Below are positions 321 to 17,517 of a DNA stretch of 32,000 nt, in pieces. Positions within the stretch are counted from its first letter, which is position 1, and every line of letters begins with the position of its first letter. The position numbers and the translations under genes are program-made. The notes beneath the pieces are model-generated. The model searched no databases. It was not told the origin of the DNA and saw only the letters and a list, made by a program, of their open reading frames with translations. The DNA is taken from positions 570,001-602,000 of the forward strand of contig NZ_CP043315.1 of the NCBI RefSeq assembly GCF_008189285.1, given 5' to 3'. This DNA is from Candidatus Saccharimonadota bacterium. Its GTDB lineage: Bacteria > Pseudomonadota > Alphaproteobacteria > CAJXXZ01 > 1604HC.

Positions 321-917
321 TTAAGCAGCTTCTGCTTTACCGAATACTTTATCCATTGAAATACCTCTTTTGATAGCGATCATTTTTGGAGATTGCATGC
401 TAAATACCCCTTTAAACAGAGCTTTAACAACGTTATGAGGGTTATTACTTCCAATAACCTTTACAACTGCATCTTTTACTCCCAAAGCATCTAATGAAGA
501 TCTAACTACTTCACTGGCAATGATACCAGTACCAACAGGAGCAGATCTTAAGCAAATTCTAGTGCTGCAATATTTTACTTCAGCATCATGATGGAATGTT
601 CTTCCTTCTTTCAGTGAAACTTTAAACATAGATCTAGAAGCTTTGTCCATAGCTTTTCTTACAGCATCAGAAACTTCTTTTGCCTTACCTAAGCTATATC
701 CTGCAGATCCATTTCCATCTCCAACTATTACAAACGCACAAACTCTTTGTCTTTTTCCACCTTTTGTAACAGCTGCAATCCAATTCAAAGAAAGAACGTG
801 ATTGATCAAATTTTCTTTCTTCCTGGAAGAATCAAATCTTCTATTGCGTGATCTTCTAGCTTGAGGAACACCTGCATTACTATCTTTATTAAAAGTATTT
901 TTAATAGTATTCATCAA
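321..917 (-). CDS. rpsE: 30S ribosomal protein S5
   Basis: ORF translation has the S5 core (AAVTKGGKRQRVCAFVIVGDGNG...GTGIIAS...NPHNVVKA). It sits after L18 in spc-operon order. Confidence 0.92.
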   Translation of the reverse strand: MMNTIKNTFNKDSNAGVPQARRSRNRRFDSSRKKENLINHVLSLNWIAAVTKGGKRQRVCAFVIVGDGNGSAGYSLGKAKEVSDAVRKAMDKASRSMFKVSLKEGRTFHHDAEVKYCSTRICLRSAPVGTGIIASEVVRSSLDALGVKDAVVKVIGSNNPHNVVKALFKGVFSMQSPKMIAIKRGISMDKVFGKAEAA

Positions 918-1276
918 AACTCCAATCCATTTTCTCTTGCAGAATCAGCAAGAGCTTTAATGCATCCATGCATTTGCCATCCACCTAAATCAAATACGAT
1001 TTTAGTAATCTTTTTTGCTTTTAGTTTATCTGCAATTGTTTTTCCGATCCATTTGCATCCCTCTACTCCATATGTCTTTATAGAGTCAGGGAAATCTTTT
1101 GAAATAGAGCTAGCAGATGCAATAGTTTTATGTTGCTCGTCATCTATTGCTTGAACATAAACAAATTTATTAGACTTAAAAACAGATAATCTTAATCTAT
1201 TATCATGATTGATAGATCTGATCTTAAATCTTCTTCTTCTTTGTCTTCTGCAAAATGATAAATCTAATCTAGACAT
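914..1276 (-). CDS. rplR: 50S ribosomal protein L18
   Basis: L18-like sequence (RLSVFKSNKFVYVQAIDD...DLGGWQMHGCIKALADSARENGLEF). Four-nt overlap with rpsE. spc-operon order. Confidence 0.9.
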   Translation of the reverse strand: MSRLDLSFCRRQRRRRFKIRSINHDNRLRLSVFKSNKFVYVQAIDDEQHKTIASASSISKDFPDSIKTYGVEGCKWIGKTIADKLKAKKITKIVFDLGGWQMHGCIKALADSARENGLEF

Positions 1277-1812
1277 TATCTTTTACCTTCCTTCTTGATT
1301 CTGGATTTCAAACCCAAAATTTCTCCACCTTTGTAAGCTATAGGCTTTCTATGTGAAGCAACTTCAGATGCAAATTGCTTTACCTTTTGAGCATCAATTC
1401 CTTCTATATCTATAATAACAGGCTTTACACAAGTCACCTTTATATAAGAAGGAATATCAACCACTATTGGGTGACTATAACCCAATAAAAGCTTAAGAGT
1501 TGATCCCTCAATGGAACTTTTATAACCAGTTCCAGAAAGAGTAAGAGTTACTTTAAATCCATCAGTAACGCCTTTAATTGCAGATACTATAATTGCTCTA
1601 ATAGTTCCAAGCATGGGGAAATTTTTATTTTTCTTATCATTTCCTCCATTCATGGAAAGCATAATAGAATTGTTATCAAGATTTAAATTCAAAAAAGAGG
1701 GTATATTTAATTCTCTTTCTCCTTTAGGTCCCTTAACAACAAGCATATTATCATTAAAATTACAGCTTATTTTATCTGAAAACATAATTGGATTTCTAGC
1801 TAATCTTGACAT
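1276..1812 (-). CDS. rplF: 50S ribosomal protein L6
   Basis: L6-like sequence (MSRLARNPI...VKGPKGE...GTGYK...LGYSHP...KGGEILGLK), located between S8 and L18. Confidence 0.9.
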   Translation of the reverse strand: MSRLARNPIMFSDKISCNFNDNMLVVKGPKGERELNIPSFLNLNLDNNSIMLSMNGGNDKKNKNFPMLGTIRAIIVSAIKGVTDGFKVTLTLSGTGYKSSIEGSTLKLLLGYSHPIVVDIPSYIKVTCVKPVIIDIEGIDAQKVKQFASEVASHRKPIAYKGGEILGLKSRIKKEGKR

Positions 1813-2189
1813 TAACGTACCTCACAAACTATTTCTCCACCAATGCCATGAGCGATTGCTGAAACATCAGATATAACTCCCTTTGAAGTGCTAAGAATTA
1901 ACATTTTAGAAATTTGTCTTAATTTCTTAATTTGTGCCAAATCAACATGCACTCTTCTGGAAGATTTAGAAATTCTACGCAAACTAGATATTACAGGATA
2001 GCCTCGATCATACTTTAGAGTAATGATGATTTCTCTTTCTGATTCATCTAATTTTTCTATAAATCCTTCTTCTTTCATTACATTTAACACATTTCTAACA
2101 AAGTTAGATTTTTGAACATTTGTGGAATCCTTACCAACCAAGTAAGCATTCCTAATTCTTGTTAAAGTATCAGATATTTTATCATTCAT
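1812..2189 (-). CDS. rpsH: 30S ribosomal protein S8. The ORF is open to 2243, but the ATG at 2189 (MNDKISDTLTRIRNA) is the likely start.
   Basis: Canonical S8 N-terminus DTLTRIRNA begins right after the ATG at 2187-2189. The longer ORF would overlap the rpsN 3' end. Confidence 0.9.
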   Translation of the reverse strand: MNDKISDTLTRIRNAYLVGKDSTNVQKSNFVRNVLNVMKEEGFIEKLDESEREIIITLKYDRGYPVISSLRRISKSSRRVHVDLAQIKKLRQISKMLILSTSKGVISDVSAIAHGIGGEIVCEVR

Positions 2190-2196
2190 AACTACC

Positions 2197-2502
2197 TCAC
2201 CAACTTGCTTGCTCAACGCCAGGTAAGTAACCAAGCACGGCAAGTTCTCTTATTTTGTTTCTACAAATCCCGAATTCTCTATGAACTCCTCTAGGTCTTC
2301 CAGTTAATGCGCATCTTCTTCTGTATCTGATTCCAATGCTTTTTCTTGGAAGGTCGTTCAATTTGTTCATAGCTTCCATCTTTTCTTTCCAGTCTAGATT
2401 AGGATCTTTAATTAACTTCTTTAATTCTTTTCTTTTTGCTTCATATTTCTTACTTAATCTTAATCTCTCTAGATTTCTATAAATCATACTTGTCTTAGAC
2501 AT
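2197..2502 (-). CDS. rpsN: 30S ribosomal protein S14 (long, 101-aa type)
   Basis: S14 signature at the C-terminus (RCALTGRPRGVHREFGICRNKIRELAVLGYLPGVEQASW), located between L5 and S8. Confidence 0.92.
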   Translation of the reverse strand: MSKTSMIYRNLERLRLSKKYEAKRKELKKLIKDPNLDWKEKMEAMNKLNDLPRKSIGIRYRRRCALTGRPRGVHREFGICRNKIRELAVLGYLPGVEQASW

Positions 2503-3040
2503 TGTGTACCTTCTCTCTGAATGGGAGCCATAAGTTCTTTAAAAGCACTTCACAATCAGCATCACTAGATGCAGAAGTAATTAGCGCAATGTTCAAACCA
2601 AATGAAAATGTGCTATCGCTTTCAAAAAATACTGTATGATCTTTAATTCCTAAATTATAATTTCCATTACCATCAAAAGCATTTAATGACATTCCATGAA
2701 AATCTCTAACTCTTGGCAAAGCTAAATAAGCTAATCTTCTAACAAACTCATACATAGAAGCTTTTCTTAAAGTAACAAATACACCAGAAATCATTCCTTC
2801 TCTAACAGAGAATCCAGCAACTGATTTTTTTGCTTTTGCTTTTACAGGCAATTGTCCAGTAATTTTCATAATTTGATCAAAAATAAAATCAATTTTATTT
2901 GGATCTTTTAGATATTTACCACAACCAGCACTGATAACAACTTTAAGCAACTTTGGAACGCTAAAATCATTTTCTAAAGAAAGCTGACTTTTAACAGTTG
3001 GCATGATGTCGCTAAAATTTTCATAATGCTTCATGTTCAT
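2495..3040 (-). CDS. rplE: 50S ribosomal protein L5
   Basis: L5-like sequence (VPKLLKVVISAGCG...FRGMSLNAFDGNGNYNLGIKDHTVFFE), in spc-operon position. Confidence 0.9.
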   Translation of the reverse strand: MNMKHYENFSDIMPTVKSQLSLENDFSVPKLLKVVISAGCGKYLKDPNKIDFIFDQIMKITGQLPVKAKAKKSVAGFSVREGMISGVFVTLRKASMYEFVRRLAYLALPRVRDFHGMSLNAFDGNGNYNLGIKDHTVFFESDSTFSFGLNIALITSASSDADCEVLLKNLWLPFREKVHNV

Positions 3041-3354
3041 GATCTAACCTCTTTCTCAGATTTTCTAAATACTAATACTTTTTTATCATTCTTAAAGACA
3101 TATTTTGTTTTAGATGGCTTGCCATTTTCTATGTGAGCAACATTTGAAACATGCATTGATTTTTCACGTTTAATTATTCCACCTTGAGCAGTATTTGTAG
3201 GCTTTTGATGCATTGTTTGCATGTTAAGCCCTTCTACTATAACTCTCATATTCTTCTTATCAATAAGTGATATTTTACCTGAAGCGCCTTTGTCTTTTCC
3301 ATTAGTTATAATAACAACGTCGCCCATTTTAATTCTTAAATTAATTGCATTCAT
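3037..3354 (-). CDS. rplX: 50S ribosomal protein L24
   Basis: KOW-type N-terminus (IKMGDVVIITNGKDKGASGKI), located between L14 and L5. Confidence 0.9.
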   Translation of the reverse strand: MNAINLRIKMGDVVIITNGKDKGASGKISLIDKKNMRVIVEGLNMQTMHQKPTNTAQGGIIKREKSMHVSNVAHIENGKPSKTKYVFKNDKKVLVFRKSEKEVRS

Positions 3355-3355
3355 A

Positions 3356-3715
3356 TTAATACACCTTCAGAGCTTTTGATGTAATTTTTGCATTTACACT
3401 TCCACTCTCTCTTGCAACACATCCAAGAACTCTAGTTCCAATCATTTCATTTTTTTCATTAATCAACACAGCAGCGTTGTCAGAATATTTCAATGAAACT
3501 CCATTTTTTCTATTAATAATTCCCTTAGTGCGCACTATAACAGCATTGTAAACATCTCCTGATTTTACTTTAGCATTAGGCTCAGCATCTATAACAGAAA
3601 TTTTAATAATCATTCCAACTTCAGCTCCACCTTGAAGAGATCCCATGTTAAAACATCTTACCTTCTTAGCGCCAGAGTTATCAGCAACATTTAAAACAGT
3701 TCCTTTATAAATCAT
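3356..3715 (-). CDS. rplN: 50S ribosomal protein L14
   Basis: Strong L14 match (MIYKGTVLNVADNSGAKKVRCF...AVIVRTK...SLKYSDNAAVLIN). Confidence 0.95.
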   Translation of the reverse strand: MIYKGTVLNVADNSGAKKVRCFNMGSLQGGAEVGMIIKISVIDAEPNAKVKSGDVYNAVIVRTKGIINRKNGVSLKYSDNAAVLINEKNEMIGTRVLGCVARESGSVNAKITSKALKVY

Positions 3716-3945
3716 GATTTATCCTCTACAAGGCACCAGCTTTTTCTTTTAGAAATAGGCGCGCATGATTTTGCTTTAATAAAATCTCCTACTTTGCAAA
3801 CATTTTGTGGATCATGAATCATAAATTTCTTTGATCTCTTAATAACGCTTCCATAAATAGGATGTTTATAAATTCTCTTCACTAGCACAGACACAGTCTT
3901 GTCAGAAGAGCACGACACGACCTTGCCACTTATGTATTTAGTCAT
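3712..3945 (-). CDS. rpsQ: 30S ribosomal protein S17
   Basis: S17-like sequence (GKVVSCSSDKTVSVLVKRIYKHPIYGSVIKRSKKFMIHD). Four-nt overlap with rplN. Confidence 0.9.
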   Translation of the reverse strand: MTKYISGKVVSCSSDKTVSVLVKRIYKHPIYGSVIKRSKKFMIHDPQNVCKVGDFIKAKSCAPISKRKSWCLVEDKS

Positions 3946-4332: not shown

Positions 4333-4447
4333 GTTGGTTACCATAGCGGAAAACATAACACCCGATTCCATCCCGAACTCGGCAGTGAAAGTTTCCAGCG
4401 CTGATGGTAGTGCATCTTAAGGTGTGCGAGAGTAAGACGTTGCCAAC
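4333..4447 (+). rRNA. rrf: 5S ribosomal RNA
   Basis: Contains the conserved 5S strings CCAUAGCG, CCCGAACUCGGCAGUGAAA, AGCGCUGAUGGUAGUG and GCGAGAGUAAGACGUUGCCAAC. The terminal helix pairs 4333-4341 with 4439-4447. A T-run follows. Confidence 0.88.
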
Positions 4448-4622
4448 TTTTTTTCAATTTAAATTATCAATCAATTTTTTTAGATGAAGCTTGTTTTAGC
4501 AATTTTTATTATTACACAATTTTTTTATTTTTTATTAATTCAATTTTTATTTTTTATAATTTATAATTTCAAATTTATTATCAATATATCATTTAAAATA
4601 ATTTATTTATATAATTTTCATA

Positions 4623-5410: not shown

Positions 5411-5523
5411 ATAAGATCTCTTATCTATAAATATATTACTTGATTTTAACTAATATCAAAAATTTATTTTCACATATTTTTATACAAATATTTCATTTCA
5501 TCATCAAAAAACATCATTTTTCA

Positions 5524-5551
5524 TTGACAATTACTTCTTGTGGGGTAAGAT
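5524..5551 (+). promoter_or_regulatory. Candidate sigma70-type promoter of the left cassette. It lies inside the inverted repeat.
   Basis: TTGACA (5524-5529), 16-nt spacer, TAAGAT (5546-5551), then a G-rich RBS (AGGGGGG) 5-6 nt before the ATG at 5575. It is conserved in the mirror copy with one spacer mismatch. Confidence 0.4.
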
Positions 5552-5574
5552 TGTAGTAATTTAGGGGGGTTGTT

Positions 5575-6870
5575 ATGAAGAACCTGAGAATTTTGATACT
5601 AGCTATGATGTTAGTTGGAGCGAGAGAGTCTATATTTGCTGGAGAAGGGGATTTGAGTGAAAATCCTAGTATAGTAGAGGTAAAGGCTAAAAAAGGAATA
5701 TTGGATAAGTTTAGTCCAACTTTGTATGAAAAAGGGATGAAGTCTATTGAGAAGATTTGCCCAAAGAAATCTCATGCAGAAAAAGAAAGGCTATATTTTA
5801 TAGTATTAGCTAACAAAGGCGCTGGGGGGAGATATGCGATTTCTATATCTAAGATGCTTGATGAGCAACTTGGTTGGGAAGAAGGAAAGCATAGAGTAAG
5901 ATTGGAATTAGTTAATTATGCATACAAGACAAGGCATGCATTGAGTGAGATTTCTGGAGCTCAAGTTTTGGTAGATTCTATACATGGTATGGCCGATGAT
6001 ATACATCAATCTAAGCTAAGCGAGTTGATTGAGTTTGCAGATTACTTGCTAAAGAGTCATGAGAATGGTGAAGTAGTGGACTGGAAGCTAGAAGCAAAGA
6101 GAGCACAGTTTCACATCAATCCCCCAACAGATAAAGATGATCTGGAAGATGTATTCCTGTACCAAAGAGATCAAAAGGTTAGAAAAATGAGAGGGGCTTT
6201 GAGGAAGTTTATTGGGGCAATTAGTTATAGCAGCGATCTTTCTCATGAAGATTTATCTAAGATGTTTTCGGAAGATAAAGAGCAATGCAAGAAAGCAATC
6301 ATTGATGCATTTGAAGCAAATGATAATGTTTTTAGAAAGAGATTATTCCCATCAAATCCAAGCTCAATCGAAGAAGAAAGAGTTATAAGATGGTTATTTG
6401 AATCCTTAGAGTTAGATATAAACCCAATCTTTGCTAAATACAAAGATGAGTTTAAGAAAATGCGCCAAGAAGAAACAGATGCAATGTGGTCAGATAAGTC
6501 TAAAGCTCCTAAAGTTAGCCCAGATCTAGATGAATCAGATATCAATGCAATGATATGTTTGTATGGTATTGGAGAATTGCATGAATTTATATTTAATAAT
6601 TATTTGAAAGATGCGCTTGTTGTTGAATTTAACAAGATAACTGAAGAGAATAAAAGTTATAAAGATTGCTCATTAAGCGCAGAAACTCTATCACTAGGAG
6701 GGATTGCATTTGAAACATGTAATGGCAATCAAAAAATAGCGATTCATCATATTAAGTATGGAGCATACGAAGCTGCCAAAGAACACATCGATGCATTCGT
6801 AAAATCTTATGTTATGCCAAGAGCAGAAGTTTTTGCTAAAAACTATGTTGAGAATTTAAAGAAATCTTAA
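5575..6870 (+). CDS. Secreted (Sec signal peptide) protein of unknown function, VgrG-linked paralogue A (431 aa)
   Basis: N-terminus MKNLRILILAMMLVGARESIFA|GEG looks like an SPase I signal peptide. It has no Cys lipobox. The gene lies 36 nt upstream of vgrG. I recognise no family. Confidence 0.8.
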   Translation: MKNLRILILAMMLVGARESIFAGEGDLSENPSIVEVKAKKGILDKFSPTLYEKGMKSIEKICPKKSHAEKERLYFIVLANKGAGGRYAISISKMLDEQLGWEEGKHRVRLELVNYAYKTRHALSEISGAQVLVDSIHGMADDIHQSKLSELIEFADYLLKSHENGEVVDWKLEAKRAQFHINPPTDKDDLEDVFLYQRDQKVRKMRGALRKFIGAISYSSDLSHEDLSKMFSEDKEQCKKAIIDAFEANDNVFRKRLFPSNPSSIEEERVIRWLFESLELDINPIFAKYKDEFKKMRQEETDAMWSDKSKAPKVSPDLDESDINAMICLYGIGELHEFIFNNYLKDALVVEFNKITEENKSYKDCSLSAETLSLGGIAFETCNGNQKIAIHHIKYGAYEAAKEHIDAFVKSYVMPRAEVFAKNYVENLKKS

Positions 6871-6906
6871 GATAATCTTAATCAATGAAGTCTATGCTTT
6901 GTCAAA

Positions 6907-9900
6907 ATGCAAAACATATCTGGCGGTAAAAGAAAAAGAGGAAGTGATGATGATATTCAATCTACTGTAGTAGTTGAAGATAATCGTCGTATTGTTAAAG
7001 TAGAAAATAAGCAAGAGCAGGTAGAGCCTGATTCTAAGAAGCAAAAGAAAGCTGATCCGTATAATATAGAATGGGTCGCAACATTTAACTATGACTTAAC
7101 CGATAAACCAGAAGACTATGTTGGTCATGTGTTTGTTTTAAATATACAAGAAGGTTTATCTGAAGCTTTTTGTGTAAATGGATCAGGATCTTTTAAAAAT
7201 AAGCAAGAAAATATGGTTGGCAAGAAAGTTAGACTTGGATTAAGTATTGGAATACCTGGTCTAGATACTAAATGTTGGCATGGCGTTGTAAATAAATGGG
7301 AATACTTAAGAGATAGTAGCGCTAAAGATGTAGATGGCAAGAAAATACATCACTATATGTATAAGTTTAGCATAATTCCTGAAATACAATTTAAGTTAAG
7401 CACAAAACGAAGCAGAGTTTTCTTCCCATCTGGTGATGATCAGTCATATTCTGATAATCAAGATATCAAGTTTAATAGGGCAAAATTGATGAATTATGTT
7501 GCAGAAAAACTGATTAAAGATAATGGAGTTGATTTACAAGATAATCCTCCAAATGAAAAAAGAAAGAAAAGTATATATGAAGAATATGATGCTATATACT
7601 CATTCTATGATTATTTAGTTGGAAATAGGGAAAATACTGATCCAGAAAATAAAGTTGATAGAGGGCTTCTTGAAAAATTAGATGAGAAAAATGGTATATC
7701 AAACAACATTGCAGTGCAAATTAAACTTGTTGATGCTTTTGGTAAATTGAGCAAATTTGATGGGAAGATACCAATCAAAGGTGCAGATAACTCTCAAAAG
7801 AATGCAATTGAAAAGGAAGAAGAAGCAACAAAACATAAATGCCCACCCAAGCGCCCATTTTTCAATTACGAAGATAAAACTAACTTTTCACAAACAGATG
7901 AAGAAGAGTTTCCTGAGTATATTGTGCAGTATGATGAGACGGATTGGGAATTTTTAAATAGATTGTGCAGGGAGTTTGGAGTGTATTATTGCTTCGAACA
8001 TACTGATTATCATACTGGAATGGTGTTTTATAGTAATCCTCAAGGAGGAGATTCTGACAATGCATTCGAGGATTTTGGAAGATTTGAGGAAGACGAAGAT
8101 GATGAGGATTATGAGTCGCAAGAAAATGAAGAGTCTTCAGCCGAATCCAAACCATATAAAACTTATCTAGGATATGAAAATGCGATTTTAGGCTATAAGC
8201 CAGATGGCTCATATGATGAGGAAGCGATTAAAGTTCATAAAAGTAAGCAGAAATCACTTAAATCTAATGAAACTTCTAATAGTTCTGCAGGAAATTCTGA
8301 TTCTGACGTAGGGAATAACGAAAATATCCAGAATAAAAGCGATGATAAAACAATTCCTCATGTAACACGTGGCGATGAGAATAAGGTTTTTGATTTGAGC
8401 GATCCATTCACTGATTCAAAGCCATTATATTATAGCAATGCAAATTTGAAGCGAGCAGATGATCAATATATTTCTCAATGGCATGAAGTGAATCAATTCG
8501 TTCAGCCTGCTCCACAACTTTATGGATATAATCCTGATTATGATCCAGAAAAGCGTAATGTTCTTCGTGAGCAAGATCAAAGTGAAGGTGGAGGCAGTTT
8601 TTCTGAAAGTGAAAGTGCAAATTCAGAAAAAGGAAGCAGTAGAATTCAGAATTACTATAATGAGAATTTTACATCTGAGAAACGAGTAAATGATTATAAT
8701 GAGCTATATAAACAGCATGCCCAATCTACTGAGACGGAATATTATGCGAAAACTTATCGTCAAGAAATTAGCCCTGGATATAAATTTGTCCTTACACATC
8801 ACCCTGATTTAGATATGAATGGGCAATATTATGTAAAGCGAGCTGTTCATAATTTGAGCTACGAAGTTGTAAATAATGCAGACCCCGAATCTGCAGATTT
8901 GGATGATATGGAGTTGCGTTATGAAAATGAAGCTGTGTTTGCAAAAATAGATCAGCCATTTAAGATTTTGCCAATTCCTCAAAGGAAAATTCTTGGAATT
9001 CAAACTGGAATTGTTGTTGGAGGGGAAGATCAGAAAATTTATACTAATCATATGGGTCATGTGAAGGTTTATTTTCATTGGGATAGCGCGAGAAAAGATT
9101 TAAGTGATGGAGAAAAACTTCAGCAAGCAATTTGGGTTCGTGTAGCTCAATGGGGAGGAGCTGGAAATGAATGGGGAGGATTTTTTGTACCTCGCGTTGG
9201 TCAAGAGGTTATAATTTCATTCGAAAATGGCAATCCTAGCAAGCCGATTGTGATGGGATGTTTGTATAATCGCTCAACAATGCCTCCATATAATTTAGTG
9301 GAAACTGAAGAAGTTACAGCGAAAACTGGAATCAAAACGGAGTCTTTAAAAGATGTTGAAGAAGGAGAAGAAAAAGGATTTAATGAGCTTAGCTTTGAGG
9401 ATAAAGCAAATGAGGAAAAGGTTTTTCTTCATGCTGAAAAAGATTATGAACAGATTATTAAAGATACGCGCAAATCTAGTATAGGAAGCGGTTCAGATGA
9501 ATTAACTATTAGCAAAGGTGATAGAAAAGTAGAGATTCTAGGCGAGGATGATCCAACAGACGGCTCTGGAAATGATATTCTGATTATTAAAAAAGGAAAT
9601 AAGGAAATAAAACTTGAATCTGAAGAGGCGAAGAATTTTCTTACAGAGCTAAAAAATGGAGATATAATTAATAAAATTGAAGAGGGGAATTATAAACTAG
9701 ATCTGCAGAAAGGAAATCAGGAGATCAAATTACAAGATGGGGATGTTGAAATTAGTATTGAAAAAGGAGATATGAAGATAAATATGAATCAAGGAGATCA
9801 AAAAGAAAATATTACTGGAAACAAAGATATAACTATTGTTAATGGAAACTATACTATAAAAATTGTGGGAGGAAATATGGAGATTGAGGCAAGTCAAATT

Positions 9901-10071
9901 TCATATCAGGCAACTGATTTCTCGATTAAATCTGCAGGTAATTTGAGCTTGGAAGCTGGTGGAAATCTGAGCATTAAGGGAGGAAATATAGAGATGAAAA
10001 GTGAAACAACGGCAGATATTGAGGCGTCAGCGATGATGAATATCAACGCAGGAATAGTGAATATAAACTAA
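6907..10071 (+). CDS. vgrG: Type VI secretion spike protein VgrG (gp27-gp5 fusion, 1054 aa) with a basic N-terminal extension and low-complexity insertions
   Basis: Hallmark VgrG strings are present: EGLSEAF; DWEFLNRLCREFGVYYCFEH; GIQTGIVVGGEDQKIYTNHMGHVKVYFHWD; IWVRVAQWGGAGNEWGGFFVPRVGQEVIISFENGNPSKPIVMGCLYN; GFNELSFEDKANEEKVFLHAEKD. The C-terminus has beta-helix-type short repeats (KGNQEIKLQDGDVEISIEKGDMKINMNQGD...). Confidence 0.92.
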   Translation: MQNISGGKRKRGSDDDIQSTVVVEDNRRIVKVENKQEQVEPDSKKQKKADPYNIEWVATFNYDLTDKPEDYVGHVFVLNIQEGLSEAFCVNGSGSFKNKQENMVGKKVRLGLSIGIPGLDTKCWHGVVNKWEYLRDSSAKDVDGKKIHHYMYKFSIIPEIQFKLSTKRSRVFFPSGDDQSYSDNQDIKFNRAKLMNYVAEKLIKDNGVDLQDNPPNEKRKKSIYEEYDAIYSFYDYLVGNRENTDPENKVDRGLLEKLDEKNGISNNIAVQIKLVDAFGKLSKFDGKIPIKGADNSQKNAIEKEEEATKHKCPPKRPFFNYEDKTNFSQTDEEEFPEYIVQYDETDWEFLNRLCREFGVYYCFEHTDYHTGMVFYSNPQGGDSDNAFEDFGRFEEDEDDEDYESQENEESSAESKPYKTYLGYENAILGYKPDGSYDEEAIKVHKSKQKSLKSNETSNSSAGNSDSDVGNNENIQNKSDDKTIPHVTRGDENKVFDLSDPFTDSKPLYYSNANLKRADDQYISQWHEVNQFVQPAPQLYGYNPDYDPEKRNVLREQDQSEGGGSFSESESANSEKGSSRIQNYYNENFTSEKRVNDYNELYKQHAQSTETEYYAKTYRQEISPGYKFVLTHHPDLDMNGQYYVKRAVHNLSYEVVNNADPESADLDDMELRYENEAVFAKIDQPFKILPIPQRKILGIQTGIVVGGEDQKIYTNHMGHVKVYFHWDSARKDLSDGEKLQQAIWVRVAQWGGAGNEWGGFFVPRVGQEVIISFENGNPSKPIVMGCLYNRSTMPPYNLVETEEVTAKTGIKTESLKDVEEGEEKGFNELSFEDKANEEKVFLHAEKDYEQIIKDTRKSSIGSGSDELTISKGDRKVEILGEDDPTDGSGNDILIIKKGNKEIKLESEEAKNFLTELKNGDIINKIEEGNYKLDLQKGNQEIKLQDGDVEISIEKGDMKINMNQGDQKENITGNKDITIVNGNYTIKIVGGNMEIEASQISYQATDFSIKSAGNLSLEAGGNLSIKGGNIEMKSETTADIEASAMMNINAGIVNIN

Positions 10072-10619
10072 TGAATATTGAGCAAATAATAAAAAATCAA
10101 CAACTAGCATGTGATTCAGAGAATACGATTTCTAGCAATGATTTTGAAGAAGTGATAGTAGATGGAAAAACTATTGAAAAACATGCAATGCAGGATGGAG
10201 TGAGAAATGGGGAAAGTATATATTATAAAGATGGGAAGATTTCTCAAAGAATAAATTACAAAGATGGGAAGATTTTTGGCGCAGTAGAAATATATAAAAA
10301 TGGATCTTTGAATTTAATTATGAATTATAAGAATGAAAAGCCAAATGGGCCTATGTATGTTTTTGAAAAAGGGAAATTATCACAAATAGGATTTTATAAA
10401 GATGAAAAGAAACATGGGAAATTCTTTGTTTTTAATAATGAATATCTATCAAAAGAAGAAAATTATAAAGATGATTTATTGGAAGGAATTTCAATTATAT
10501 ACTATCCAAAATCTACAAATATTTTTGAAATTGGAGAATATTTTGCAGGAGACAAAAATGGATCCTGGAAGCAATTTGACTTAGATGGAAACATTATCAA
10601 AGAAGAATTCTTCGATTAA
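10071..10619 (+). CDS. MORN-repeat-variant / YwqK-antitoxin-like protein (182 aa)
   Basis: Reiterated Y-K-D/N-G-K...G units (YYKDGKISQRINYKDGKIFGAVEIYKNGSL..NYKNEKPNGPMYVFEKGKL..FYKDEKKHGKF). The ATG overlaps the vgrG TAA by 1 nt (TAATG). Confidence 0.7.
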   Translation: MNIEQIIKNQQLACDSENTISSNDFEEVIVDGKTIEKHAMQDGVRNGESIYYKDGKISQRINYKDGKIFGAVEIYKNGSLNLIMNYKNEKPNGPMYVFEKGKLSQIGFYKDEKKHGKFFVFNNEYLSKEENYKDDLLEGISIIYYPKSTNIFEIGEYFAGDKNGSWKQFDLDGNIIKEEFFD

Positions 10620-10704: not shown

Positions 10705-11310
10705 TTAATTTACAAAAGACGCATTCATCAACTTTGCTCTATTAAACTTAATATCTTGATTATCTGAATACGATTGATCATCACCAGATGGGAAGAAAAC
10801 TCTGCTTCGTTTTGTGCTTAACTTAAATTGTATTTCAGGAATTATGCTAAACTTATACATATAGTGATGTATTTTCTTGCCATCTACATCTTTAGCGCTA
10901 CTATCTCTTAAGTATTCCCATTTATTTACAACGCCATGCCAACATTTAGTATCTAGACCAGGTATTCCAATACTTAATCCAAGTCTAACTTTCTTGCCAA
11001 CCATATTTTCTTGCTTATTTTTAAAAGATCCTGATCCATTTACACAAAAAGCTTCAGATAAACCTTCTTGTATATTTAAAACAAACACATGACCAACATA
11101 GTCTTCTGGTTTATCGGTTAAGTCATAGTTAAATGTTGCGACCCATTCTATATTATACGGATCAGCTTTCTTTTGCTTCTTAGAATCAGGCTCTACCTGC
11201 TCTTGCTTATTTTCTACTTTAACAATACGACGATTATCTTCAACTACTACAGTAGATTGAATGTCATCATCACTTCCTCTTTTTCTTTTACCACCAGATA
11301 TGTTTTGCAT
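10705..11310 (-). pseudogene. Truncated vgrG 5' copy. It has 196 codons identical in protein to vgrG, then 5 unrelated codons and a stop. The start codon is intact.
   Basis: The ORF translation is identical to VgrG residues 1-196. It lacks the gp27 remainder and the gp5 domain. Homology ends at 10723. Confidence 0.8.
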
Positions 11311-11346: not shown

Positions 11347-12645
11347 TTAAGATTTCTTTAAATTCTCAACATAGTTTTTAGCAAAAACTTCTGCTTTTGG
11401 CATAACATAAGATTTTACAAATGCATCGATGTGTTCTTTGGCAGCTTCTCCATGTTTAATATAATAAATGGTCGTGCCTTGCGAAGCATTGCATATATTG
11501 AATGATATTTGATTGATATTAAGTTGATTGTCTTTATTTTCTTCATTTATCTTACCAAGCTCTTTACTCAAAGCAACTGCAATGTATTCATTAAATATGA
11601 AATGGTATAAATCGTCTCTTATATATGTTCTTGTCATTGCAATTTTATCTGATTCATCTAGATCTTGGCTAACTTTAGGAGCTTTAGACTTATCTGACCA
11701 CATTGCATCTGTTTCTTCTTGGCGCATCTTCTTGAACTTAGCTTTGTATTCTTCAAATATAGGATCTATTTCTAAATCTAAAGCACTTAATAGATATCGA
11801 ATAGTGCTTGCTTCTTCTTGATCGCTAGGACATCTTAGATCACATAATCTTATATAAGAGCATCTGTCATAATCTGCTATTATATCAAGCATGAATTGAA
11901 AGCATTGCTCTTCATCTTGAGAAAAAAGTTCTTTCAAATCTTCATTATCTACATGTCTTCTAGCTCCTAATCCTGAAAGACATTGTCTCAAAGCCCCTCT
12001 CATTTTTCTAACCTTTTGATCTCTTTGGTACAGGAATACATCTTCCAGATCATCTTTATCTGTTGGGGGATTGATGTGAAACTGTGCTCTCTTTGCTTCT
12101 AGCTTCCAGTCCACTACCTCACCATTCTCATGACTCTTTAGCAAGTAATCTGCAAACTCAATCAACTCGCTTAGCTTAGATTGATGTATATCATCGGCCA
12201 TCTGCTCTATTGCTGAAGTTAATACAGATGCATCTTCTGGAAGATTCGATTTAATCTCATAAATATATCGCACTATCATATATTCTGTTTTGTCATCAAA
12301 TGATGATAATTTATAATCCAGCATATTTTGCAATCCCTGCTCATCATACTTTTTGAGCGAAATAACAAAACTATCATCATCATTACCTTTAGACATTTGC
12401 AAATATATCATCAATTTATACTTGCCATTAGATTCATTTGGGCACAATTTCTTAGTTTCATCTAAGTATTCTTCATACAATTCTTGAGTATAGAAATCAA
12501 AACGATTTTCATCATTTGAACTTTCTGATTTCTCATCTATATCAACTCTGCTAGGATTTTCACTCAAATCCCCTTCTCCAGCAAATATAGACTCTCTCGC
12601 TCCAACTAACATCATAGCTAGTATCAAAATTCTCAGGTTCTTCAT
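11347..12645 (-). CDS. Secreted (Sec signal peptide) protein of unknown function, VgrG-linked paralogue B (432 aa)
   Basis: It has the same 32-aa N-terminus and signal peptide as paralogue A. The central 72 aa are identical, a 29-aa block is near-identical, and the last 32 aa are near-identical. The rest is diverged. Confidence 0.8.
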   Translation of the reverse strand: MKNLRILILAMMLVGARESIFAGEGDLSENPSRVDIDEKSESSNDENRFDFYTQELYEEYLDETKKLCPNESNGKYKLMIYLQMSKGNDDDSFVISLKKYDEQGLQNMLDYKLSSFDDKTEYMIVRYIYEIKSNLPEDASVLTSAIEQMADDIHQSKLSELIEFADYLLKSHENGEVVDWKLEAKRAQFHINPPTDKDDLEDVFLYQRDQKVRKMRGALRQCLSGLGARRHVDNEDLKELFSQDEEQCFQFMLDIIADYDRCSYIRLCDLRCPSDQEEASTIRYLLSALDLEIDPIFEEYKAKFKKMRQEETDAMWSDKSKAPKVSQDLDESDKIAMTRTYIRDDLYHFIFNEYIAVALSKELGKINEENKDNQLNINQISFNICNASQGTTIYYIKHGEAAKEHIDAFVKSYVMPKAEVFAKNYVENLKKS

Positions 12646-12668
12646 AACAACCCCCCTAAATTACTACA

Positions 12669-12696
12669 ATCTTACCCCACAAAAAGTAATTGTCAA
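12669..12696 (-). promoter_or_regulatory. Mirror copy of the cassette promoter
   Basis: Reverse complement gives TTGACA (12696-12691), 16 nt, TAAGAT (12674-12669), plus the same RBS before the ATG at 12645. Confidence 0.4.
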
Positions 12697-12873
12697 TGAA
12701 AAATGATGTTTGACTAATAAATTAACCAATAAAAGGTAATTCTAAATTCATTTTTAATGTTTTAATGTATATTAATGCCTAATTCAATGCATTTCAAATT
12801 ATCGACAAATACATTACGTAAATGCAGTTCTTTTAGATTGTTTTTTGTCAATACATGTTGTAACATTCTTTTG

Positions 12874-12947
12874 CGGGGCGTAGCGCAGTCTGGTAGCGCA
12901 TCTGCTTTGGGAGCAGGGGGTCGGAAGTTCGAATCTTCTCGCCCCGA
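12874..12947 (+). tRNA. tRNA-Pro (anticodon UGG)
   Basis: Cloverleaf folded by hand. Acceptor CGGGGCG/CGCCCCG, D-arm GCGC..GCGC, anticodon loop UUUGGGA (UGG at 12908-12910), T-loop TTCGAAT. No encoded CCA. Confidence 0.9.
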
Positions 12948-12954
12948 TTGATTA

Positions 12955-13042
12955 GGAAGAGTGGCCGAGTGGCTGAAGGCGCATGCCTGGAAAGCATGTA
13001 TACGGTTTCACCGTATCGAGGGTTCGAATCCCTCTTCTTCCG
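12955..13042 (+). tRNA. tRNA-Ser (anticodon GGA), class II with a long variable arm
   Basis: Acceptor GGAAGAG/TTCTTCC, anticodon stem CATGC/GCATG with loop CUGGAAA, variable arm TACGG..CCGTA, T-arm GAGGG TTCGAAT CCCTC. Confidence 0.9.
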
Positions 13043-13155
13043 TATTAGTCGCCCGCAAAAATCTAAGAATAAAAGAGGGAAGAACGAAACGAATGGAATG
13101 AGTGGAAGTTAAATCCCTCTTCTTCCGTATTAGTCGCCCGCAAAAATCTAAGAAT
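13027..13155 (+). repeat. Two perfect 44-bp direct repeats (13027-13070 and 13112-13155). The first includes the last 16 nt of tRNA-Ser. This looks like an att-like scar.
   Basis: AATCCCTCTTCTTCCGTATTAGTCGCCCGCAAAAATCTAAGAAT occurs twice, 41 nt apart. The second copy is preceded by a degenerate T-arm (GTGGAAGTTAAATCCCTC). Confidence 0.9.
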
Positions 13156-13452
13156 TAAAAATAAGATTTTGAGAGAAAACGATAAATAGAAGTTAACTGA
13201 GCGCAGCGAAGAGAGTAAATTTAAATGTAATGCAAATTTATCAAGAGAGCGTAGCGAGCTGGAATGAGATTTTGAATTAAATGAAAAATTTAGTCATAAT
13301 TAAAATATGCTCAACGAACTATGTCAAGTAAATTTGTTTTTTGGTTATTCAAAAAATTACTATAAATCTCATATAATTTGCTAAAATATAAAAACTTTTT
13401 TCATTTCTCATTGTTATTAAATCATTTAAAATTTCTAACAATTATAAATCTG

Positions 13453-14910
13453 CTATTTTAACCCTCTATACAAATCAAGAGCCTTGTTTCTGGAATCTGC
13501 TAAATCAACAATGGGATTTGGATAAGTTTCTCCCAAAATTATTCCAGCTGATTTTAAAACTTCCTCAGTAGCCTCCCAAGGCTTAAACAAATATTTATCA
13601 GGCAAATTACTTAATTCAGGTACAAATTTCTTAGTATAATCACCATGTTTGTCAAATTTTTCTCCCTGAATGATTGGGTTAAAAATCCTAAAATATGGAG
13701 ACGCATCAACCCCACTGCCAGCAACCCATTGCCAGCTTGCGCTATTATTAGCAAGATCTGCGTCAACCAAGCAATCCCAAAACCAATCTCTTCCTTCATG
13801 CCAATGAATATTTAAATTTTTTACCAAGAATGATGCAGTCACCATTCTAATTCTATTATGCATATATCCTGTTTTCCATAACTGACGCATTCCTGCATCA
13901 ATAATTGGATATCCAGTATTTCCATATTGCCATGCTTTTAAATGCTTTTCATTACTCTTCCATGGAAAGTTGTCAAATTTACTATTAAAATTATCTTTAT
14001 GAATATTCTTAGAATGGTGCAATAAGTAACATGAAAACTCTCTCCATATTATTTCACTTAAAAAATGATCTATATCGCAATCTATTGCATGCAACTTTCC
14101 AACATTGCTAATATATTCCCAAACTTTAGAAGGAGATATTTCGCCAAAATGTAAATGAGCAGATAACAGAGATGTGGAATTTTTTGCTGGATAATCTCTA
14201 TCTTTTTTATATCCAGAAAGCTTGTTTTTTACAAAATAACTAAACTTATTTTGCGCTGCCATCTCTCCTATATCGCATGATTCTAAAATTTTTTGATGCC
14301 ATTTTTCCTTCATCGGAATTAAATCTAGATCCAACAAAGTGGTTTTATTTTCAATATCTTTGATAGTGCTGATTTTTTTTAAATTTTCTACTGCCTTGCG
14401 CGGAGAAAGCAAGTAAGACTTATTTTTATATGCAGAAAAAACTTTATAATAACTTTGATCATTTTTTAATATATCATCTGGATTCCACAAATAATTACTG
14501 TTGAATTCTTTATAATTAACAAATCTTTTATTGCAAACCATTTTAACGTCATTTGCTTGCATTGCGCTCCAAGGCTCATAACATAAATTGCAAAAAACAT
14601 TGCTAACATTATATTTTTCAATAATTTCTTCAATAATCTTACTTGACACTCCTGAATATATATTAAGGTTTCCATTTAAAGACTTGTTTAACATATCAAG
14701 TGAATGATGCAACCATATCTTGCTAGCGCTGCCAATTTTAAATGAGTCAGGAACATAGTAATCATCTAATATATAAATAGGAAGGATGTCTCCTAAATTA
14801 GATGCTGCAACAACAGATAAATTATCAGATAATCTTAAATCCTGCCTAAACCAAGCTATGGAAATCTTTTTCACAATACCAATATAATTGAATATAATTA
14901 TTTTTAGCAA
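13453..14910 (-). CDS. phrB: Deoxyribodipyrimidine photolyase (class I CPD photolyase family). The start is TTG at 14910 or, more likely, GTG at 14874.
   Basis: Collinear with E. coli Phr: IAWFRQDLRLSDN, YKVFSAYK, TSLLSAHLHFGEISP, IIWREF, TGYPIIDAGMRQL..TGYMHNRIRMVTASFLVKNL, DADLANNSASWQW, PYFRIFNPIIQGEKFD. Confidence 0.9.
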   Translation of the reverse strand: MLKIIIFNYIGIVKKISIAWFRQDLRLSDNLSVVAASNLGDILPIYILDDYYVPDSFKIGSASKIWLHHSLDMLNKSLNGNLNIYSGVSSKIIEEIIEKYNVSNVFCNLCYEPWSAMQANDVKMVCNKRFVNYKEFNSNYLWNPDDILKNDQSYYKVFSAYKNKSYLLSPRKAVENLKKISTIKDIENKTTLLDLDLIPMKEKWHQKILESCDIGEMAAQNKFSYFVKNKLSGYKKDRDYPAKNSTSLLSAHLHFGEISPSKVWEYISNVGKLHAIDCDIDHFLSEIIWREFSCYLLHHSKNIHKDNFNSKFDNFPWKSNEKHLKAWQYGNTGYPIIDAGMRQLWKTGYMHNRIRMVTASFLVKNLNIHWHEGRDWFWDCLVDADLANNSASWQWVAGSGVDASPYFRIFNPIIQGEKFDKHGDYTKKFVPELSNLPDKYLFKPWEATEEVLKSAGIILGETYPNPIVDLADSRNKALDLYRGLK

Positions 14911-15015: not shown

Positions 15016-15113
15016 AAACTCTTCTTCTTTTATATTAAATCACACGCAAAAATCTAATAATCAAGAAGAAAAAGCTAAAGAAATAGAGCAAGTGAGAACT
15101 AAACCCTTATTCC
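15016..15113 (+). repeat. Degenerate third copy of the tRNA-Ser-3'-end repeat module
   Basis: CTCTTCTTC...TATTAAATCACACGCAAAAATCTAATAAT...GTGAGAACTAAACCCTTATTCC aligns by eye with 13031-13125. That stretch covers CTCTTCTTCCGTATTAGTCGCCCGCAAAAATCTAAGAAT...GTGGAAGTTAAATCCCTCTTCTTCC. Confidence 0.6.
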
Positions 15114-15256: not shown

Positions 15257-15610
15257 ATGAGAATTTACGGTTTCGTCTTGCCTAAAAATAAAGTTTTTAG
15301 ATATGCTTTGAGAGCTATCTATGGCGTTGGTGAATATAGAGCTAGACTTATATGCGAAGATATGAAAATAGAAGACTCTGTTAGAGTGAAAGACTTAGAT
15401 GATTCACATGCTGTGCAATTAGGTAAAACTATTGAAAAGCATGGATTTGTTATTGGTCCTGATCTTCAAAGAGAAATTAATGAAAATATCAAAAGACTGC
15501 AAGCAAATGGTAGTTTGAGAGGCAGGAGACATCTATATGGACTTCCTGTTAATGGACAAAGAACCAAATCAAATGCTAAATCTGCTAGACGTAGAAAGAA
15601 AGTGATGTAA
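15257..15610 (+). CDS. rpsM: 30S ribosomal protein S13
   Basis: S13 motifs: ALRAIYGVGEYRA, DLQREINENIKRL, LRGRRHLYGLPVNGQRTKSNA. Confidence 0.92.
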   Translation: MRIYGFVLPKNKVFRYALRAIYGVGEYRARLICEDMKIEDSVRVKDLDDSHAVQLGKTIEKHGFVIGPDLQREINENIKRLQANGSLRGRRHLYGLPVNGQRTKSNAKSARRRKKVM

Positions 15611-15993
15611 TGGTTAGAGTAACTAAAAGAAGTAAAAAAGAAATTCATTCTCATGTTATGGTTCATATCAGTTCAAGTTCTAATAATACTATAATGACAG
15701 CTTTTTCAGACAAAACTAAAGCTGTTGTTGCATGGTCTTCCCCTGGTGCAGTTGGATTTAAAGGAGCTAGAAAAGCTACCCCTTTTGCCTCACAAGCTGC
15801 CGCAGAAGACCTATCTAATAAAATGGATGGATTTAGCGTAAAAAGCATATCTATTATATTTAGAGGGTTAGGAAATGGTAGAGACGCTGCATTGAAAACA
15901 TTTCAAACTAGAGGATTCATGGTAAAAACAATAGCAGATAGAACTAGTTTTCCATTTAATGGAGTTAGAATGCGTAGGAGACGTCGTGTCTGA
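15610..15993 (+). CDS. rpsK: 30S ribosomal protein S11
   Basis: S11 motifs: HISSSSNNTIMT, GFKGARKATPFASQAAAE, GLGNGRDAALKTFQTRGF, DRTSFPFNGVRMRRRRRV. TAATG overlap with rpsM. Confidence 0.92.
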   Translation: MVRVTKRSKKEIHSHVMVHISSSSNNTIMTAFSDKTKAVVAWSSPGAVGFKGARKATPFASQAAAEDLSNKMDGFSVKSISIIFRGLGNGRDAALKTFQTRGFMVKTIADRTSFPFNGVRMRRRRRV

Positions 15994-16003
15994 TAAGAAT
16001 ATA

Positions 16004-17167
16004 ATGTTAAATTCTTCATTTACTGAAGAACAAGACTCATCTTTTGTAAGTTCTAATAATAAAAATACAGAATCTGTTGTTTTTGGACCTCTGGATCCTG
16101 GATATGGAGTTACTGTAGGAAACTCTATTAGAAGAGTTTTGCTTTCTTCAATTCCTGGATTAGGATTAGTTGGGTTCAAAATCAAAGGCGTTAACAATGT
16201 GTTTTCATCTATTGATGGAGCTCATGAAGATGTTAAATACATAGTTATAAACATGAAAAAAATGATATTTAAATCCAATTTAAATGAATTTACCATGTCA
16301 TTAAAAGCTAAAGATGGTCAAGTTACAGCTGGAATGTTTTCTTTAGTAATCAATAGAGAGAAAATTTCTTTTGATTCCCTAAACTCAGCTAAAGATGAAG
16401 ACTTGTCTGATGATTTGAATTTTGATGAAAGTGAAAGCTCTTCTGATAATTTAGATTCTGAAGAATCCAATGAAAATGAAACAAATGATGATAGCTCAAA
16501 AGAGGTTGAGTCTAGCGATATTGCTGACGAACTAGATGATTCTGATTTATCTGTTGAGATTTTAAATCCTGATCAACATATATGTCATTTATCCAAAGAC
16601 ACTGAAATTGAGATTGAGATTTTTGTTAAATTAGGAAAAGGATACGCTTCTTCAAATTCATTAGATATTCCTGATGGGTTTATCAAAGTTGACGCCTCTT
16701 TTAGCCCAATAAGAAGGGTAGCTTGTGAAATAAGCAATGTTAGAGTTGGTCAAAGAACTGACTATGATCAATTAACTCTAAATGTAGAAACAAATGGAAC
16801 CGTTCAGTCTTCAGTTGCTGTTAATAAATCTTGTTCTATTTTGCGAGACTTGTTTGATGAGCTAATGAATCAAAACCAATCTGAAAAAAGTGTTGTGGAT
16901 CAAGATGACACAGTTGACGAAAGATGGTCTCATGAAATTAGCTCTGCATTAAATTTGTCCAATAGAGCTCAAAATCTTATAGATGCCTTGGAATTTGTTT
17001 ATATAGGAGATCTTGTTATATCAAATGAAAAGCGCTTGCTTTCTGTAGCTGGATATGGAAAGAAAACTATCAGTGAAATTAAAGATTCTTTGTATGCTAA
17101 TTATAAATTTTACTTAGAAACTAAAATAGATAATTGGGAAACAATAAGACCTAAAGGAGTGTTATAA
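16004..17167 (+). CDS. rpoA: DNA-directed RNA polymerase alpha subunit, with an acidic insertion of about 60 aa in the N-terminal domain
   Basis: GNSIRRVLLSSIPG (N-terminal domain), VEILNPDQHICHL, GKGY, SPIRRVA, RTDYDQLTLNVETNG, and C-terminal domain LSNRAQNLI..YIGDLV..GYGKKTISEIKD. The ORF is open from 15959, but the ATG at 16004 follows the rpsK stop. Confidence 0.9.
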   Translation: MLNSSFTEEQDSSFVSSNNKNTESVVFGPLDPGYGVTVGNSIRRVLLSSIPGLGLVGFKIKGVNNVFSSIDGAHEDVKYIVINMKKMIFKSNLNEFTMSLKAKDGQVTAGMFSLVINREKISFDSLNSAKDEDLSDDLNFDESESSSDNLDSEESNENETNDDSSKEVESSDIADELDDSDLSVEILNPDQHICHLSKDTEIEIEIFVKLGKGYASSNSLDIPDGFIKVDASFSPIRRVACEISNVRVGQRTDYDQLTLNVETNGTVQSSVAVNKSCSILRDLFDELMNQNQSEKSVVDQDDTVDERWSHEISSALNLSNRAQNLIDALEFVYIGDLVISNEKRLLSVAGYGKKTISEIKDSLYANYKFYLETKIDNWETIRPKGVL

Positions 17168-17517
17168 TGCGTCATTGCGTAAGTAAGGTAAAGTTAAATA
17201 GAAAACAAGGAAACAGAAAGGCTTTGATTATGAATCTTGCCAGATCTCTCCTTTTGCATGGAAAAATTCATTCTACTAAAGCAAAAATAGCTGCTTGCAG
17301 GCCTTTTGCAGAAAAGATGATCACCTTAATGAAAAAAGGCGATCTAGCTTCAATAAGAAGATTAGTTGGTGTTTTTAGAAGCAAAGAATATGTTAAAGAG
17401 GTTTCTCAAAAAATTTCTGAGATGTATAAAGACAGAAATGGTGGATACACCAGAACTGTTAAAATTGGATATCGTCAAGGTGATGGAGCTCCAATTTCTG
17501 TTATTGAATTAGTATAA
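17167..17517 (+). CDS. rplQ: 50S ribosomal protein L17
   Basis: L17 motifs: MRHCVSKVKLNRKQGNRKALIMNLARSLL, IHSTKAKIAACRPFAEKMIT, GGYTRTVKIGYRQGDGAPISVIELV. Confidence 0.92.
   Translation: MRHCVSKVKLNRKQGNRKALIMNLARSLLLHGKIHSTKAKIAACRPFAEKMITLMKKGDLASIRRLVGVFRSKEYVKEVSQKISEMYKDRNGGYTRTVKIGYRQGDGAPISVIELV

Follow-up and report, generated by a model that had tools for sequence, protein, structure and literature searches.

A mosaic inverted repeat of putatively exported orphan paralogues at the vgrG locus of Candidatus Cytomitobacter indipagum, and its probable origin by patchy gene conversion

The vgrG locus and its mosaic inverted repeat

Candidatus Cytomitobacter indipagum belongs to the Holosporaceae and lives as an endosymbiont in a marine diplonemid. 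We analysed a stretch of 32,000 nucleotides (nt), here called the window, from its 628,024 bp contig, and all positions given below are counted within this window. The window harbors a vgrG locus with two paralogous genes, A and B, in inverted orientation. In brief, paralogue A (5575-6870, plus strand) is an open reading frame (ORF) of 431 amino acids (aa), 100% identical to the database entry FZC35_02605, and paralogue B (11347-12645, minus strand) is an ORF of 432 aa, FZC35_02625, that is 56% identical to A overall. The full-length vgrG (6907-10071, plus strand) encodes the spike of a type VI secretion system (T6SS), a protein of 1054 aa that NCBI names VgrG. It contains the Pfam domains Phage_GPD, Phage_base_V and Gp5_trimer_C, and matches TIGR03361 at 4e-80. 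The start of the next gene (10071-10619, plus strand; Pfam MORN_2), encoding a MORN-repeat protein of the YwqK type, overlaps the vgrG stop. The genome paper labels the MORN/YwqK protein an immunity protein and notes the pairing of VgrG with YwqK; the inverted paralogues go unmentioned there (10.1101/719211). A second, short vgrG sequence, here called the stub, is found as a 201-codon ORF (10705-11310, minus strand), in which the first 196 codons equal vgrG at the amino acid level and are followed by ASFVN and a stop.

The two arms of the locus, 5509-7494 on the left and 12711-10723 on the right, form a mosaic inverted repeat in which a repeat finder reports four inverted pairs. Near-identical blocks, C1, C2, C3 and C4+, alternate with three stretches at 23-37% amino acid identity, which we call modules V1, V2 and V3.

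Block C1 (5509-5670; partner 12711-12550) has two mismatches in 162 nt. Beginning 66 nt before the ATG, it takes in a promoter-like site, a ribosome-binding site (RBS) and codons 1-32, including a putative signal peptide. The region upstream of A, at the start of the left arm (5509-5574, plus strand), matches 12711-12646 except at position 5537. The promoter-like site, TTGACA-16-TAAGAT at 5524-5551, and the GGGGGG RBS are consensus matches only. Upstream of B, at the end of the right arm (12646-12711, minus strand), the same promoter-like site (12696-12669) and RBS are present. The original prediction, made by eye, had placed this block at codons 1-32 with 100 percent nucleotide identity. The codon range stands. 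The block does not start at the ATG, as it reaches upstream across the promoter-like site and RBS, and position 5670 differs between the copies.

Module V1 comprises residues 33-138 of A (5671-5988; partner 12549-12202), at 23% amino acid identity with indels. It is followed by block C2, residues 139-210 (72 aa; 5989-6204; partner 12201-11986), with two synonymous mismatches, at 6072 and 6204, where one had been counted by eye. Module V2 spans residues 211-292 (6205-6450; partner 11985-11737) at 34% amino acid identity. Block C3 is a segment of about 30 aa (about 6451-6541; partner 11736-11646), the core of which, 6460-6541, has one mismatch. Module V3 covers residues 323-398 (6542-6768; partner 11645-11449), at 37% amino acid identity.

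The last block, C4+ (6769-7494; partner 11448-10723), is 726 nt long and 98% identical according to the repeat finder. It comprises the last 33 codons of A and B, a 36-nt spacer and vgrG up to codon 196. Near-identity of the gene ends had been recognised from the outset; the block, taken then to end at the stop codon, in fact runs on through the spacer and into vgrG. In the MAFFT alignment its mismatches number five in 6769-6954, none in 6955-7442 and six in 7443-7494. The stub exists since this block spans 588 nt of vgrG in the right arm, where the reading frame is intact.

The proposed block and module structure of A and B is borne out by protein and nucleotide alignments alike. Along the proteins the identity runs 100% (C1), 23% (V1), 100% (C2), 34% (V2), 97% (C3), 37% (V3) and 97% (C4). 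A global nucleotide alignment read in 30-nt windows gives 29-30 of 30 matches within the blocks; the stretches that separate the blocks contain gaps and reach 13-20 of 30. This sliding-window check, which had been proposed with the prediction, thus yields a step function and not a smooth decay. The edges are abrupt, at both ends for C2, with the exception of C3, whose borders are softer and gradual. In the MAFFT alignment the longest perfect runs measure 488, 132, 131 and 83 nt. When the alignment columns were shuffled 2000 times, no run exceeded 51 nt, and none of the shuffles attained the observed run lengths.

Divergence of blocks and modules, and probable gene conversion

We compared A with B segment by segment, estimating synonymous (dS) and nonsynonymous (dN) divergence with the Nei-Gojobori method. 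In the blocks dS is 0.05 for C1, C2 and C4 and 0.13 for C3, with dN about 0 in C1 and C2 and about 0.01 in C3 and C4. In the modules, with dS between 0.9 and 1.7, the values are 1.52 for dS and 0.82 for dN in V1 (dN/dS 0.54), 0.91 and 0.57 in V2 (dN/dS 0.62), and 1.70 and 0.53 in V3 (dN/dS 0.31). If the blocks shared the proportion of synonymous differences of the modules (pS 0.62), their 98 synonymous sites would show six or fewer such differences with a probability of 3e-31. Purifying selection on the protein cannot account for this. That the blocks were homogenised rather than merely conserved, as first proposed, therefore holds. Judged by these sites, the common ancestor of the blocks is far more recent than that of the modules.

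The modules had been called hypervariable, and this term does not fit. They are colinear over their entire length with a broad substitution spectrum, the proportion of nonsynonymous differences pooled over the modules (pN 0.43) is lower than pS, and dN/dS is 0.3-0.6. Colinear modules with pN below pS indicate that both copies are real, constrained genes. The silent divergence of the modules also matches that of the end of the stub that escaped homogenisation (see below), and by this measure the modules are old, not fast-mutating.

Mismatches are unevenly spread within C4+, with five in 186 nt (6769-6954) and none in 488 nt (6955-7442; Fisher p=0.0015), which argues for two or more conversion events that differ in age. 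The G+C content is 37.5% in the homogenised blocks versus 30-33% in the modules (p=0.008), with a window average of 31%, and the vgrG 5' tract is not enriched. The excess weakly fits GC-biased conversion and could equally reflect amino acid content.

The stub differs from vgrG at eight nucleotides, all of them third positions with synonymous changes, an outcome with P = 1e-4 even if only one lineage had evolved neutrally. Two lie in codons 1-17, none in codons 18-178 (488 identical nt) and six in codons 179-196, where pS is 0.69, dS about 1.9 and dN 0. Silent divergence like that of the modules, together with a dN of 0, points to an old second vgrG that was long under selection at the protein level. 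The simplest reading is that the right arm formerly bore a second complete and functional vgrG behind B. On the same reading this gene would have been truncated comparatively late, or the stub would still be useful as an N-terminal fragment; a recent conversion tract from vgrG would have replaced the middle of the stub, unless the transfer ran the opposite way. The stub is missing from the protein database hits, and from this absence we conclude that it is probably annotated as a pseudogene.

We suggest, with a probability of roughly 0.7, that the locus consists of two old inverted paralogous units that were partly re-homogenised by RecA-dependent intrachromosomal gene conversion. Silent-site identity in the blocks lies far above the background of the pair, and RecA is available. 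The recA gene lies at the end of the window, which cuts it (31180-32000, minus strand; Pfam RecA, 4.7e-96), and its product is the likely enzyme behind the conversion tracts. The recombination and repair set of Candidatus C. indipagum includes RecA-RecFOR and MutSL, with RecBCD absent (10.1101/719211). In this scenario each unit would have begun as a promoter, an exported orphan gene (A or B) and a vgrG. Conversion would start, or survive, only where purifying selection had kept the copies pairable, that is at the promoter and signal peptide, two internal helical segments, the C-terminus and the 5' end of vgrG; the step from pairable to these particular blocks is inferred. The divergence of about 50% in the modules would block extension of the heteroduplex, so that conversion halts abruptly, with MutSL being present in the genome. 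Selection may also purge tracts that would make A and B alike. The second vgrG would have been truncated by a late deletion, or else kept as a useful 201-aa stub, and the same recombination may incidentally give rise to inversions and chimeras.

Several points weigh against this proposal. There are just two sequences and no outgroup, which leaves the direction and number of the conversion events unresolvable. Four block edges are sharper than predicted by a decay of conversion frequency toward the border of homology, and sharp edges could reflect imported modules or selection instead. Greater intrinsic constraint on the blocks than on the modules is presumed, as no alignable orthologue was found. 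Finally, the closed assembly gives a single arrangement.

The sharp edges would also fit A and B being alleles of different origin. An imported unit, for instance A-vgrG-MORN, would then have displaced the resident one and left B and the stub behind. Its source would be a related strain and its route homologous or homology-facilitated recombination or a gene transfer agent, with the blocks as recombination footprints. The differences between stub and vgrG, being synonymous only, do resemble allelic divergence at the strain level. In Vibrio cholerae, vgrG-linked modules are swapped by homologous recombination, leaving remnants (PMC5361080), and gene transfer agent clusters are reported from reduced protist endosymbionts in a paper that mentions Cytomitobacter (PMC9254644). 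We nevertheless regard an import as improbable. A single displacement would not yield an inverted orientation and four separate identical blocks, the G+C content of the modules is unremarkable for the genome, a second strain or allele was found in no searched database, and the perfect tract of 488 nt would still need later gene conversion.

Far less probable is that the mosaic arose as an error of hybrid assembly across the repeats, or by targeted mutagenesis of the modules in a recent duplicate, for example by a diversity-generating retroelement. The genome was closed with a Unicycler hybrid assembly of Illumina and Nanopore reads (10.1101/719211). The repeats do exceed the 125-nt Illumina reads, and linkage over the blocks of 216 and 726 nt rests on read pairs and long reads. 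The diverged modules, however, are unique sequence, and a misassembly could falsify their linkage only. As for hypermutation, the substitutions are spread over all classes and are not adenine-specific, and indels are present. The window contains no reverse transcriptase, the sole RVT_3 match being the RNase H, and the dS of the modules is saturated, so the modules are old. Based on the broad substitution spectrum, the indels and the lack of a reverse transcriptase in the window, we rejected A and B as targets of a diversity-generating retroelement.

Proteins A and B and their genomic surroundings

Both A and B are acidic, with isoelectric points of 6.0 and 4.8, respectively. By inspection, both start with the same putative Sec signal peptide; the N-terminus is identical between them and has K2 and R5 (MKNLR), a hydrophobic core at residues 6-16 (Kyte-Doolittle 2.87) and an end between IFA and GE. 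Neither protein has a second hydrophobic segment, and no internal repeats were found in A or B. AlphaFold2, run on A with B, predicted helices only, with a predicted local distance difference test (pLDDT) score of 37.

Neither A nor B has a significant match in Pfam, NCBIfam, PADLOC, PHROGs or the PDB sequences. The best matches below cut-off are RepB_C for B (16.3 bits against a cut-off of 27.3 bits, E 0.0097), phrog_24200 (E 0.039) and annexin (E 0.067). Searches of 5.8 billion proteins (word-index) and of 1.84 billion cluster representatives (HMMER) gave no relatives of A and B besides themselves, and a look-up of the exact proteins gave no other assembly or contig with them. They are thus not assigned to the known vgrG-adjacent accessory proteins (DUF4123, DUF1795/Eag, DUF2169, PAAR and known immunity families), as there was no significant family match. 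Most likely, A and B are Sec-exported alpha-helical envelope or secreted proteins that are co-expressed with the spike.

A genome scan gave a single related locus, in HK-STAS-PROT-4, a complete alphaproteobacterial metagenome-assembled genome (MAG) of 558 kb from activated sludge. A scan of metagenomes gave generic VgrGs only, and a protein search with VgrG returned just the VgrG of the window and that of the MAG. The MAG encodes a VgrG with 42% and a MORN protein with 53% identity to those in the window. Next to its vgrG lies the gene for a 441-aa orphan, X (L001 8407-9732, minus strand), divergent from vgrG and with the MORN gene after it. The gene order is unlike that in the window, since MORN and X read away from vgrG. 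There is one copy at the MAG locus and there are no repeats, which we count in favour of gene conversion between duplicates in the window.

Protein X has a predicted signal peptide, ending between MKKSLLLLLLVSNVSVHA and GD, and is predicted to be all-helical (AlphaFold2, pLDDT 38). In database searches it is an orphan, too. Its weak match to Peptidase_C101, at E 0.0045 and 16.9 bits, stays below the cut-off of 27; we take Peptidase_C101 to be the OTULIN-type deubiquitinase family. A comparison of X with A and B gave no significant likeness (BLASTP E 0.5-1; hhalign probability 0.2%), and they share only their size, the predicted signal peptide, the helical prediction and a place beside vgrG and MORN. 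X may be a very fast-evolving orthologue of A and B or merely a positional analogue.

The VgrG of the window has an N-terminal extension of 70 residues (6907-7116) with basic clusters, GKRKRG ... KKQKK, and the stub has this extension as well. The N-terminus of the MAG VgrG is unrelated to it, the alignment beginning at residue 71. To us the basic clusters give the impression of a nuclear-localisation signal. Further into the gene, at about 8060-8350, VgrG has long acidic and serine-rich low-complexity inserts.

Outside the vgrG locus, the content of the window, which has a G+C content of about 31%, is made up of housekeeping genes. The ribosomal-protein superoperon is split into two divergent parts. 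The spc-operon ribosomal proteins (rpsQ-rplN-rplX-rplE-...-rpsE) are encoded leftward at 321-3945 on the minus strand, and rpsM-rpsK-rpoA-rplQ rightward at 15257-17517 on the plus strand. Between these halves are a 5S rRNA gene, a UPF0102-family gene, the RNase H gene rnhA, the vgrG locus, two tRNA genes (12874-13042) and a photolyase gene (13453-14910). The 5S rRNA gene (4333-4448) is solitary, located between rpsQ on the minus strand and the UPF0102-family gene, and no 23S rRNA gene adjoins it. We take UPF0102 to be the YraN family. Further genes in the window are fabZ, skp, bamA, rseP, pyrG, secG, pcnB, tatD and priA. GC skew tracks gene orientation and is uninformative on a past inversion.

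The 3' end of tRNA-Ser(GGA) (12955-13042) together with 32 nt downstream (13027-13074) is directly repeated 85 nt further on (13112-13159) with 98% identity. A third, degenerate copy of the tRNA end lies beyond the photolyase at 15018-15065 (60%; core CGCAAAAATCTAA). The photolyase gene is thus bracketed by tRNA-end repeats, and the arrangement looks like the relic of a tRNA-integrated element. The rpoA gene (15959-17167) encodes 402 aa, with the match to the dimerisation domain scattered across residues 44-299. Bacterial alpha subunits are expected to be about 330 aa long, and the spread of the match suggests that rpoA carries an insertion. Two ORFs, 27704-28378 (224 aa) and 30692-31054 (120 aa), are without a match in Pfam. 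The first of these is located directly upstream of priA, as is a 227-aa ORF in the MAG HK-STAS-PROT-4 (L001 15860-16543).

Possible inversion and shuffling, and known systems

The original prediction pointed out that the copies are inverted, so that a crossover within a block would invert the interior and give reciprocal chimeras. This geometry is correct. It raises the possibility of a shuffling switch, in which RecA crossovers in the four blocks would give up to 8 module combinations and toggle the paralogue that stands before the full-length vgrG. On this view, frequent crossover would have homogenised the blocks incidentally. The minimum for RecA pairing is usually cited as 25-30 bp, and every block exceeds it. 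The inverted blocks of 162, 216, about 90 and 726 nt give a fitting geometry, recA is present, and repeated events would keep the blocks identical. Both copies have also been kept intact and constrained in an otherwise gene-shedding genome.

Against such a switch, the promoter-like site, RBS and putative signal peptide are common to both copies. Presumably, then, both copies are expressed, and a reciprocal exchange would therefore change no expressed modules and would alter only their combination in cis. Inversion at the substrate of 726 nt leaves A and B nearly unchanged and merely puts vgrG and MORN behind B. Inversion also leaves unexplained why the last 18 codons of the stub were under purifying selection, since these leave the stub only through a crossover in the last 52 nt. 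Each module has only two alleles, and no variant or chimeric proteins were found in the searched databases. We consider a switch of this kind unlikely, although rare inversion isomers may occur in the population.

The accompanying idea of shufflon or antigenic-variation logic found no support. No recombinase, no shared junction motif and no extra cassettes that could serve as an archive were found in the window, and the two copies do not divide into one that is expressed and one that is silent. Among the scanned ORFs of at least 80 aa in the 32-kb window there is no integrase or invertase, all being housekeeping, T6SS or orphan genes. The eight junctions have no common motif, and the homology blocks are 90-726 nt long. 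No extra module copies, fragments or vgrG remnants were found elsewhere in the window. A shufflon was rejected, as neither a site-specific recombinase in the window nor short border sites were found, and so was antigenic variation of the pilE/pilS type, as promoter-like site, RBS and start codon do not differ between the copies and the databases contain only two proteins of the family. A recombinase-free shufflon working through homology blocks, with continual RecA inversions, chimeric exported proteins and switching of the copy coupled to the spike, is a rather improbable extension of the same idea. If true, it would diversify a protein facing the host or competitors in a genome nearly devoid of other sources of variation.

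Patchy gene conversion, the reading we prefer, gives the locus a wider bearing. Genomes of such reduced endosymbionts are usually thought to be static. The locus is direct sequence evidence that homologous recombination still acts on duplicated DNA in an obligate endosymbiont with a 628-kb genome, and its inverted repeat may conceal inversion isomers in the published assembly. It also marks a lineage-restricted, duplicated and putatively exported protein at the head of a vgrG operon. In Holosporineae, the T6SS is regarded as the leading candidate for interaction with the host, and it has no known substrates or partners (PMC11909080). A, B and their positional analogue X are reasonable candidates for experiments on T6SS function.

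The locus resembles several known systems in part. In segmental conversion as a means of antigenic variation, known from Neisseria pilE/pilS, Anaplasma msp2 and Borrelia vlsE, conserved blocks flank variable segments, as in A and B, and offer homology for RecA-dependent transfer. Segmental gene conversion of this kind is treated in a review (PMC4534519). Those systems have one expression site and several promoterless donors, whereas here there are only two full-length copies with the same promoter-like site, RBS and putative signal peptide, no further cassettes in the window and no adaptive immune system to evade. The R64 Rci/sfx shufflon and the invertible hsdS genes of phase-variable type I restriction systems require a site-specific tyrosine recombinase together with short border repeats. 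They are similar in that inversion of the inverted segments gives alternative chimeric proteins. Their recombinase and border repeats were not found here, and the proteins are unrelated.

Mosaic genes for exported proteins also occur in Wolbachia. Baldo et al. are said to have described the hypervariable regions of Wolbachia wsp in 2005, and wspB is reported to be a mosaic (PMC4705124). As with A and B, these concern an exported protein of an intracellular alphaproteobacterial symbiont in which conserved and diverged segments alternate through recombination. The Wolbachia mosaics arise between strains, and WSP is a beta-barrel of the outer membrane. A and B, by comparison, form a pair within a single genome, and both are orphans with an all-helical prediction. 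The T6SS auxiliary clusters of Vibrio cholerae are similar in that recombination in conserved flanks remodels vgrG-linked modules, leaving mosaics and remnants (PMC5361080). That exchange takes place between strains and concerns effector-immunity pairs downstream of vgrG; here it is confined to one genome and the gene lies upstream of vgrG.

The inverted tufA and tufB genes offer the best match. Abdulkarim and Hughes reportedly described in 1996 that these are subject to RecA-dependent gene conversion in Salmonella and E. coli. Like A and B, tufA and tufB are inverted chromosomal paralogues with silent-site identity, maintained by the general recombination machinery with no dedicated recombinase, and their conversion sometimes comes with inversion. 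The tuf genes are homogenised over their full length, whereas A and B are homogenised in four islands, with three old modules persisting between them. In contrast to tuf, too, A and B are a pair only 3.2 kb apart, at a T6SS spike locus of a 628-kb endosymbiont. The closest kind of system is thus the concerted evolution of inverted duplicates, here in a patchy form: a known process acting on a new pair of orphan genes in an unusual genome.

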